Assembly (NCBI RefSeq): GCF_003790525.1
Contig: NZ_CP033635.1
Origin: Escherichia coli
GTDB taxonomy: Bacteria; Pseudomonadota; Gammaproteobacteria; Enterobacterales; Enterobacteriaceae
Strand: one strand, 5' to 3'
Length of the DNA: 64,000 nucleotides
Under the pieces are notes generated by a model. That model was given only the letters and a program-made list of their open reading frames with translations. It searched no databases and was not told the origin of the DNA. Both the position numbers and the translations under genes were made by a program. Below, one piece after another: positions 23,856 to 64,000 of the stretch (its first letter is position 1; every line of letters starts with the position of its first letter).

Positions 23856-26552
<2,697 letters not shown>

Positions 26553-62244: not shown

Positions 62245-62277
62245 AGGCGCAACCTTCACGGGTTGCGCCTGTGTTTT
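62245..62277 (+). terminator. Rho-independent terminator after mdtK
   Basis: 10-bp stem AGGCGCAACC/GGTTGCGCCT followed by GTGTTTTT. Confidence 0.65.
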
Positions 62278-63533
62278 TACGCAGGCTGGAGCGTTGCGCC
62301 AATCCCGTCTTCGTCTGGCTGTAGTTTCAGTGCGTTACACAGAGTTTGCCGACTGGCATCTGTTATCTCAACGTGTATATCACCAGTAACTTCCCCTTTC
62401 ACATTGATGAAGTCAGGTGAAATTTCTTTCGCACTGGTTTGCAGGCAAATCGCTCCCTCTCCGCGCAGGCGTTTCACTTTAAGTTGCACATGCGTTGCCG
62501 CACCAGTGATTAGCCACAGTTTTCCGCCATTGAGATTGATGTTACCAACACTGAAAGTGACACTGTCACCTTTTATCGTACTGCCGTCGAGAATCAATAC
62601 ACCGCCCTGCTGTACAGTAATCGTTGATTGTTGCAGATCTGCGCCATAGCCAATAATCATTGAAGCGCCGTCCAGTAATGCAACACTACCGGTCAGTTCA
62701 ACCGGTGCGCGATCTTCCTCTACGACAAAATTTTCGTCCGCGCTGGTGGGTGACAACAGGATCACTGTCCCACCTTGTATTACCGCATTTTCCAGCGTAC
62801 CGGCATGCACTTCAGCCCGACCACCCACATTAACGGACAGGTTTTGCGTCTTACCGGAACTGTAGAGCTGAAGACCATCCGTCCCCAGACGATAGATGGC
62901 TCCATTCTCAACAATAGTGTCAGAGTCTTCACCACCGAGATTATTCATGGTGCCACCAGCAAGCAACGTATCATTGGCTTTCCCCGCCAGCATAAAAACG
63001 CCGCCCTGATTAATCTCACAATTGCTGGCTTCCCCACCTGGATACACCAACAATTCACCACCTTCATCTACCACGACCGCTGAGGTTGTCCCATTGACCA
63101 ACAGGCCACCCTCTTGATCGAGAATAATTTTTTCCGCGCGATGGCCTTCCAGTACACGCAGGTTACCGCCATTTTCCAGCAACAAACCGCAGGCATAACC
63201 TTTATCAACGCTGAATTCACCTTCGGGATGGCGGCCATTAACCGTAGCGAGCGTAGAGAGACTAATTGCGCCTCCCTCGGACTGAACAATATCTGTGGCA
63301 ATGGCACCGTCGCTGACCGATAGCGTGCCATTGTTGCCGTACTGTGTGCATTTGGCGATCCCACCGGTTGCCACTTTCAACCAGCCAGCCCCCGTGACCA
63401 CGGTATTTTCGGCTCTTCCGCCAGCCTCAACAATTAACTCGCCTTCAGTAAGTTGCGTCGCGCCAATGACCTCGCCGGTCTTAACAATTTGCACGTTCCC
63501 GTCGCTCATCAAGTTTTTCGCATCAGATCCCAT
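62277..63533 (-). CDS. ydhQ: YdhQ: AIDA-like beta-helical repeat protein (autotransporter-passenger-related), uncharacterised
   Basis: 418 aa; repeated Gly-rich motifs about 19 aa long (e.g. GGxLxV/GGxAxN); no obvious N-terminal signal peptide and no C-terminal beta-barrel domain. Confidence 0.8.
   Translation of the reverse strand: MGSDAKNLMSDGNVQIVKTGEVIGATQLTEGELIVEAGGRAENTVVTGAGWLKVATGGIAKCTQYGNNGTLSVSDGAIATDIVQSEGGAISLSTLATVNGRHPEGEFSVDKGYACGLLLENGGNLRVLEGHRAEKIILDQEGGLLVNGTTSAVVVDEGGELLVYPGGEASNCEINQGGVFMLAGKANDTLLAGGTMNNLGGEDSDTIVENGAIYRLGTDGLQLYSSGKTQNLSVNVGGRAEVHAGTLENAVIQGGTVILLSPTSADENFVVEEDRAPVELTGSVALLDGASMIIGYGADLQQSTITVQQGGVLILDGSTIKGDSVTFSVGNINLNGGKLWLITGAATHVQLKVKRLRGEGAICLQTSAKEISPDFINVKGEVTGDIHVEITDASRQTLCNALKLQPDEDGIGATLQPA
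62567..62579. other. matS site (MatP-binding; GTGACACTGTCAC) within ydhQ
   Basis: Exact match to the matS consensus GTGACRNYGTCAC. Confidence 0.65.
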
Positions 63534-63840
63534 GATTTATTCCTTTGCTGCATCTGTGTGCCTTTATTGCTACCTAAGTGTAAAGGCTACGAAGGATTTA
63601 TCCACGACAGATTTGAGATGGTGGCAAACAACTCTGTTTAAACTCTGATACACGGATTATTGGGTTGTATCAGATGTAAATGCGATCCTGAATAAAAATC
63701 GCCCTTGCAAATCAACAAAATATAGCCAATTTGCTTAAAAGCTCTGCAAACGGTCGAAATAACGCAGAAAATTACGTTTTGCCTCTTGCCACCTTCCCAC
63801 TCTGCCGCTAATATTCGTCCCCGTTGTCACCTACAACGTT

Positions 63841-63917
63841 GCGTTCATAGCTCAGTTGGTTAGAGCACCACCTTGACATGGTGGGGGTCGTTGGTTCGAG
63901 TCCAATTGAACGCACCA
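63841..63917 (+). tRNA. valV: tRNA-Val (anticodon GAC)
   Basis: 77 nt: GCGTTCATAGCTCAGTTGGTTAGAGC...anticodon loop CTTGACAT...TTCGAGTCC...CGCACCA; cloverleaf with encoded CCA. Confidence 0.9.
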
Positions 63918-63921
63918 TCCT

Positions 63922-63998
63922 GCGTCCGTAGCTCAGTTGGTTAGAGCACCACCTTGACATGGTGGGGGTCGGTGGTTCGAGTCCACTCGGACGCACCA
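63922..63998 (+). tRNA. valW: tRNA-Val (anticodon GAC), second tandem copy
   Basis: 77 nt: GCGTCCGTAGCTCAGTTGGTTAGAGC...TTGACAT...CGCACCA; differs from the first copy in the acceptor and T stems; 4-nt spacer. Confidence 0.9.
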
Positions 63999-64000
63999 GA

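Follow-up and report, generated by a model that had tools for sequence, protein, structure and literature searches.

The valV-valW operon of Escherichia coli: two tandem tRNA-Val(GAC) genes, very probably with no mobile element at their 3' end

The window, which is the whole stretch of 64,000 nucleotides of Escherichia coli DNA analysed here, contains two tRNA genes according to ARAGORN, and both encode tRNA-Val with the anticodon GAC. They lie in tandem at the 3' edge of the window, where the presence of such a pair is far above chance expectation. The features of the locus are as follows.

62277-63533, minus strand: ydhQ, an AIDA-repeat autotransporter-like gene, the divergent upstream neighbour, outside the operon (RefSeq annotation of the identical SMS-3-5 stretch)
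63786-63814, plus strand: sigma-70 promoter of valV-valW, with -35 TTGCCA at 63786-63791, a 17-nt spacer and -10 TAATAT at 63809-63814 (consensus scan, 9/12, and identity with K-12)
63819-63840, plus strand: 5' leader of the primary transcript (identity with K-12; start sites from PMC2190699)
63841-63917, plus strand: valV, tRNA-Val(GAC), 77 nt (ARAGORN; Rfam RF00005, 70.1 bits; 100% identical to K-12 valV)
63918-63921, plus strand: 4-nt spacer between valV and valW, TCCT (UCCU in the RNA; direct reading of the sequence)
63922-63998, plus strand: valW, tRNA-Val(GAC), 77 nt (ARAGORN; Rfam RF00005, 69.6 bits; 100% identical to K-12 valW)
63999-64000, plus strand: opening 2 nt of the 3' trailer, GA, which match the normal K-12 trailer

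The identity and structure of the two genes can be read directly from the window. Their scores against Rfam RF00005 compare with a gathering score of 29 (E about 2e-14). Both genes are full length and end in ...GCACCA with the CCA encoded, and both carry the anticodon GAC at positions 34-36 and the A73 discriminator. A35, C36 and A73 are identity elements for ValRS, and both tRNAs are charged by ValRS and read the codons GUC and GUU. Their classical names are presumably tRNA-Val2B and tRNA-Val2A. Six of the 77 positions are not the same in the two genes (gene indices 5, 7, 51, 65, 67 and 69), and in standard tRNA numbering they resolve into the three compensated pairs 5:68, 7:66 and 50:64. These are U5-A68, A7-U66 and U50-A64 in valV, and C5-G68, G7-C66 and G50-C64 in valW. 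An earlier, sequence-only reading of this DNA had described two 77-nt tRNA-Val(GAC) genes 4 nt apart that differ in their stems, a description borne out by ARAGORN and Rfam and by the three compensated pairs, and the sequence strings that it quoted agree with the window. Its naming of the second copy as valW holds base for base against K-12, and the window does end 2 nt past that gene, with GA after the second CCA.

When the window is aligned with K-12, identity is 100%, starting at position -55, over promoter, leader, valV, TCCT, valW and the first two bases of the trailer, and the two genes are recognized as valV and valW because of this complete identity. The flanking genes ydhQ and ydhR are also the same as in K-12, but the background of the window is an SMS-3-5-like lineage in which the flanks are about 98.7% identical to those of K-12. 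Upstream of valV lie cfa, ribE, mdtK and ydhQ, the last two of which form, within the window, the upstream side of the synteny around valV-valW that continues downstream into ydhR and ydhS in 24 of the 24 nearest relatives.

The last 2 kb of the window are 100% identical in 24 RefSeq complete genomes, SMS-3-5 among them. Relative to SMS-3-5 there is one SNP in the last 22 kb, and about 30 SNPs plus one rsxC repeat unit in the first 42 kb. The best RefSeq complete genomes (SMS-3-5 and about 23 others) have 1 mismatch over the last 25 kb and none is identical, and for this reason the downstream junction of the window is deduced from relatives. Two differences in the body of the window may be recorded here. 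At 52067, inside mepH, the window has G where SMS-3-5, and apparently every best-matching RefSeq genome, has A; this is the one SNP of the last 22 kb, and it leaves no RefSeq complete genome identical to the window. At 26082-26503, inside rsxC, lies a 96-bp tandem repeat of 4.4 copies (91% matches) that is one unit longer than in SMS-3-5. This is the sole length difference over the 64 kb, and it suggests that the number of repeats in the RsxC linker is polymorphic, with the reading frame kept.

The valV-valW operon is already known and experimentally well characterized, and its recovery here is an ordinary finding. A consensus scan upstream of valV returned one sigma-70-type promoter, about 50 nt 5' of the gene, whose -10 hexamer is followed by the GC-rich discriminator TCGTCCCC. 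In K-12 the promoter was scored as matching 5/6 positions at -35 and 4/6 at -10, and primer extension placed the starts at two C residues 18-19 nt 5' of mature valV (Mohanty and Kushner 2007, PMC2190699). Counting back from 63841, we infer that these residues correspond to bases within the C run at 63819-63822. The UCCU spacer of K-12 has no RNase E site, and the dicistronic precursor is split by RNase P at both mature 5' ends independently of RNase E (PMC2190699). The trailer is unstructured and is taken off by PNPase and RNase II, while termination appears to be Rho-dependent and ydhR is not co-transcribed (PMC2190699). Growth arrest of RNase P mutants has been linked to lost processing of valV-valW (PMC7049720), and both tRNAs have been detected, and found to be processed, in K-12 (PMC2190699, PMC7049720). 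Later work from the same group widens the account to all seven valine tRNAs (PMC4176162).

Since the start sites, RNase P processing and Rho dependence are taken from literature on the identical K-12 sequence, the course of expression in this genome is given as a prediction. Transcription from the sigma-70 promoter would yield one dicistronic precursor with a leader of about 19 nt, and RNase P would cut each tRNA at its mature 5' end. With nothing but UCCU between the genes, these same cuts would also part valV from valW without RNase E. Transcription would then end by Rho-dependent termination in the unstructured trailer ahead of ydhR, after which PNPase and RNase II would remove the trailer and exonucleases would trim the 3' ends to the encoded CCA.

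A terminator scan could suggest that some intrinsic termination occurs at the end of valW, where a weak hairpin with a T-rich match (ACCAGAT...ATCTGGT, 3 G-C pairs) straddles the CCA. Two such hairpin matches were found against a mean of 1.3 in shuffled sequence, and the hairpin was not taken as a terminator because it is equally frequent in the shuffles; published termination, moreover, is Rho-dependent, and the candidate was rejected.

Among characterized operons, leuQ-leuP-leuV resembles valV-valW in that its tRNAs are separated by RNase P, its short spacers are not A/U-rich and impose no dependence on RNase E, its termination is Rho-dependent and PNPase and RNase II clear away its trailer (PMC2190699). 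It differs from valV-valW in the amino acid, in having three genes and in its location.

The sequence-only reading had raised the possibility of an island downstream of valW and proposed a search for an integrase gene or a direct repeat of the tRNA 3' end. In SMS-3-5, valW is followed by 108 nt and then by ydhR, ydhS (frameshifted), ydhT, phsC, ydhX, ydhW, ydhV, ydhY, fumD and ynhH, beyond which lie pykF, lpp, ldtE and the suf operon. In all close relatives the trailer continues as GATTTTCTTAATCTGG..., 108 nt to the ydhR start codon. The proposed search, run on SMS-3-5, revealed no integrase or phage gene within the 20 kb after valW. The 3' end of valW (...TCCACTCGGACGCACCA), sought as a 25-mer with up to 3 mismatches and as a 17-mer with up to 2 in those 20 kb and in the 64-kb window, recurred only in the tRNA genes themselves. 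Likewise, no integrase stands beside valW in the K-12, O157:H7 and WCHEC050613 loci.

The conservation of this junction, and the absence of an island from it, were observed directly in the relatives. The segment ydhQ-valV-valW-ydhR-ydhS is in one piece in 24 of the 24 nearest relatives, at 99.9-100% identity. Of 5425 complete E. coli genomes, 5395 match in one piece a 2-kb probe that extends 1 kb to either side of the valW 3' end, and 5423 do so with a tighter, 319-nt probe made up of both tRNAs and the next 160 nt. No presence/absence polymorphism of the DNA flanking valW was found among these 5425 genomes, and within E. coli the block between the tRNA-Val genes and pykF is fixed core DNA without integration machinery. 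For the genome of the window we infer from the relatives that no mobile element lies at the 3' end of valW and that the core block ydhR-ydhS-ydhT-phsC-ydhXWVY-fumD, followed by pykF, probably comes next. The island that had been envisaged thus finds no counterpart in the relatives, which run directly into core genes without an integrase or an att repeat.

The two broken junctions that were inspected, out of the 30 interrupted within 1 kb of the valW 3' end and including one of the two interrupted in the tight probe, are both IS3-family insertions, after which ydhR and ydhS follow directly; one lies 115 nt downstream of valW in O157:H7 strain F3113 and the other 40 nt downstream of valW in strain WCHEC050613. 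The elements are two independent IS1203/IS629-like insertions (L003, 13157-14370, and L004, 12240-13453, in our set of loci), in an O157:H7 strain and a sewage isolate. They sit in the 108-nt spacer between valW and ydhR or at the start of ydhR, and nothing larger was found there. The short trailer of valW is a recurrent IS target. Separately, one of 5426 complete E. coli genomes had no match to ydhQ-valVW-ydhR at all, and two of the matches are on plasmid records. Within the downstream block, ydhS is annotated as frameshifted in SMS-3-5 (L001, 22539-24136), and E. albertii (L007) has no ydhS match, its ydhT starting about 480 nt after the ydhR of the array region. Since ydhS is frameshifted in the one and missing from the other, it seems to be dispensable in the block.

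The surroundings of the tRNA genes vary more widely between genera. When one genome from each species was scanned by pattern, at least 120 loci with tRNA-Val(GAC) arrays were returned, and nearly all of the 120 species loci listed keep the order cfa-ribE-mdtK-array. Most other genera in these loci lack ydhQ and have the end of mdtK about 155 nt ahead of the array. In at least 37 of the loci the distance from the last tRNA-Val gene to the start of pykF is under 1 kb. The genera with pykF at this short distance include Serratia, Pantoea, Erwinia, Rahnella, Proteus, Xenorhabdus, Photorhabdus, Morganella, Cedecea and Mangrovibacter. In Escherichia, by comparison, 9.1 kb (ydhR to fumD/ynhH) separate valW from pykF, and ydhQ lies between mdtK and valV. 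In Citrobacter and Enterobacter the array is followed by ydh genes in differing subsets or by other cargo. Across Escherichia, Citrobacter, Enterobacter and Salmonella the interval carries, for example, ydh subsets, the SPI-2 type III secretion system (T3SS), T6SS (type VI secretion) genes for IcmF/TssG, transporters and regulators. No tyrosine recombinase was found by Pfam among the 30 clusters of first-neighbour ORFs from other species.

The best known occupant of this interval is SPI-2, which lies alongside tRNA-valV in S. enterica (PMC3158058) and has been defined as the region between ydhE (mdtK) and pykF (PMC5799925). In S. enterica subsp. arizonae and diarizonae, an SsaU-like Bac_export_2 ORF (E=1.7e-102) and a FliP homologue directly follow the array, which identifies the cargo as SPI-2. 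The site is orthologous to that of E. coli, with two tRNA-Val(GAC) genes, the first identical to E. coli valV, that start 155 nt past the end of mdtK. E. coli differs in having no T3SS island there, only the ydhR-fumD block. In S. bongori the same tRNA-valV site is occupied by the T6SS island SPI-22 (PMC3158058), so that, on the evidence of that report, a different cargo occupies the same tRNA-Val/pykF interval; SPI-22 is absent from E. coli. An IcmF/TssM gene directly after the array in Silvania confinis (L087, 102-1385), and TssG in one other locus, echo SPI-22. The general premise of the sequence-only reading, that tRNA 3' ends are integration sites for islands, is sound for this orthologous site in Salmonella, but no integrase-borne element accompanies it in E. 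coli.

The tRNA-Val/pykF interval varies between genera, and the ydhR-fumD block of E. coli may itself be an old acquisition. On this reading, which complements the best explanation of the locus and which we hold to have somewhat better than an even chance, the 9.1-kb valW-pykF block of Escherichia would be DNA inserted long ago at a family-wide hotspot and since fixed, with its integration machinery lost. The reading draws on the short array-pykF distance in at least 37 loci with a conserved cfa-ribE-mdtK upstream, on the different cargo in Escherichia, Citrobacter, Enterobacter and Salmonella, and on GC content, which dips to 0.43 at ydhR and 0.37 in the gap between fumD and pykF. GC content is, however, ordinary for E. 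coli over most of the block (0.47-0.52), the 30 first-neighbour ORF clusters include no integrase, and there is no att repeat in E. coli. The block is also present in essentially all E. coli, and loss in other lineages could have produced the same contrast.

A broader proposal, which we advance tentatively and regard as falling somewhat short of even odds, is that the array-pykF interval may act across the Enterobacteriaceae as a hotspot for insertion without an integrase. The ydhR-fumD block would then be one ancient cargo, parallel to SPI-2, SPI-22 and the T6SS and transporter cassettes. The proposal is based on synteny in the 120 species loci listed, and such a hotspot has already been partly described for Salmonella.

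The prospect that, in this particular genome, valW is followed just past the edge of the window by a genomic island or prophage integrated at its 3' end is a much poorer one. Transfer RNA 3' ends are frequent integration sites, the genome of the window is not exactly any RefSeq record, and the DNA beyond 64000 lies out of view. The presence of SPI-2 and SPI-22 at the orthologous site in S. enterica and S. bongori (PMC3158058) also lends the idea some appeal. Against it stand the tight probe and the ydhR-ydhS junction of the nearest relatives, the fact that the two exceptions inspected are IS elements, and the last 2 nt of the window (GA), which are already those of the normal trailer. With 5423 of 5425 genomes and 24 of 24 nearest relatives showing an unbroken junction, the probability of an island can be put at a very small figure at most.

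A search for an attP site, in which the 3' half of valW was compared with a phage collection of 50,697 records, likewise argues against an island, as it returned no attP-like match. The only full-length match was to CP025887.1, "Escherichia phage 503046", which was rejected as a phage at valW since it is chromosomal DNA. The record contains ydhQ-valV-valW-ydhR through ydhV, the IS21 genes istA/istB, and P2-like baseplate J, tail-fibre and tail-fibre assembly genes, and after this P2-like tail remnant come tynA, feaB, feaR and ydbH. Either mislabelled or chimeric, the contig brings host tRNAs into searches of phage databases. The other phage hits were phage-encoded tRNAs or generic similarity to the T-arm. 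With selC, leuX, pheV, thrW and argW, which we take to be tRNA sites of integrase-borne islands and prophages, valW shares only an encoded-CCA tRNA beside a variable region; it differs from them in having no integrase, no att direct repeat and, over the 5425 genomes, no presence/absence polymorphism. We regard it as nearly certain that the locus is the chromosomal E. coli valV-valW operon, consisting of two working tandem tRNA-Val(GAC) genes with no mobile element at the 3' end.

The arrays of other species also bear on whether both genes are functional. The valV-type gene followed by the valW-type gene, both identical to those of E. coli, occurs in at least 40 species of several genera among the 120 loci listed. 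In the same loci the valW type is the commonest tRNA-Val(GAC) sequence, with 110 copies, and it is the sole type in many genomes of Serratia, Rahnella, Xenorhabdus and Cedecea; the valV type accounts for 55 copies. The 29 distinct array members of these loci vary nearly exclusively in their stems, and the variation is compensated, with 608 of 609 stem cells pairing. Compensation of this kind across species indicates that both paralogues are under selection as tRNAs, and the three compensated stem differences between valV and valW are old, fixed differences between two functional paralogues. In S. enterica subsp. arizonae and diarizonae (L102, L111) and in Enterobacter asburiae (L039), the first tRNA is E. 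coli valV and the second is 4 positions off valW, a third, compensated stem variant. Since it is the second tRNA that differs, the valW slot would appear to be less fixed than the valV slot in these lineages.

That one of the tandem copies is a duplicate in decay, or a partial duplication of the att type that an integration event left behind, is effectively refuted: integrative elements do create duplicated tRNA segments and the copies differ at six positions, but every one of these differences is compensatory, both genes are full length with an encoded CCA and score about 70 bits against RF00005, both persist unchanged and in the same order in those 40 or more species, and in K-12 both tRNAs have been detected and their processing observed (PMC2190699, PMC7049720).

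Beyond the correct annotation of valV-valW, the finding has little significance of its own, and its useful outcome is a negative one, namely that a tRNA at a window edge, which had been flagged as the possible mark of an island, very probably marks none. The operon itself matters as the source of the cell's only valine tRNAs with a GAC anticodon and as a model substrate in work on how RNase P processes polycistronic tRNA transcripts. For the family, an integrase-free hotspot, if real, would point to a tRNA-adjacent mechanism of acquisition, or to a total loss of the integration machinery, that leaves no att scar. The locus also illustrates that an interval adjacent to a tRNA can vary between genera and yet be completely fixed within one species.
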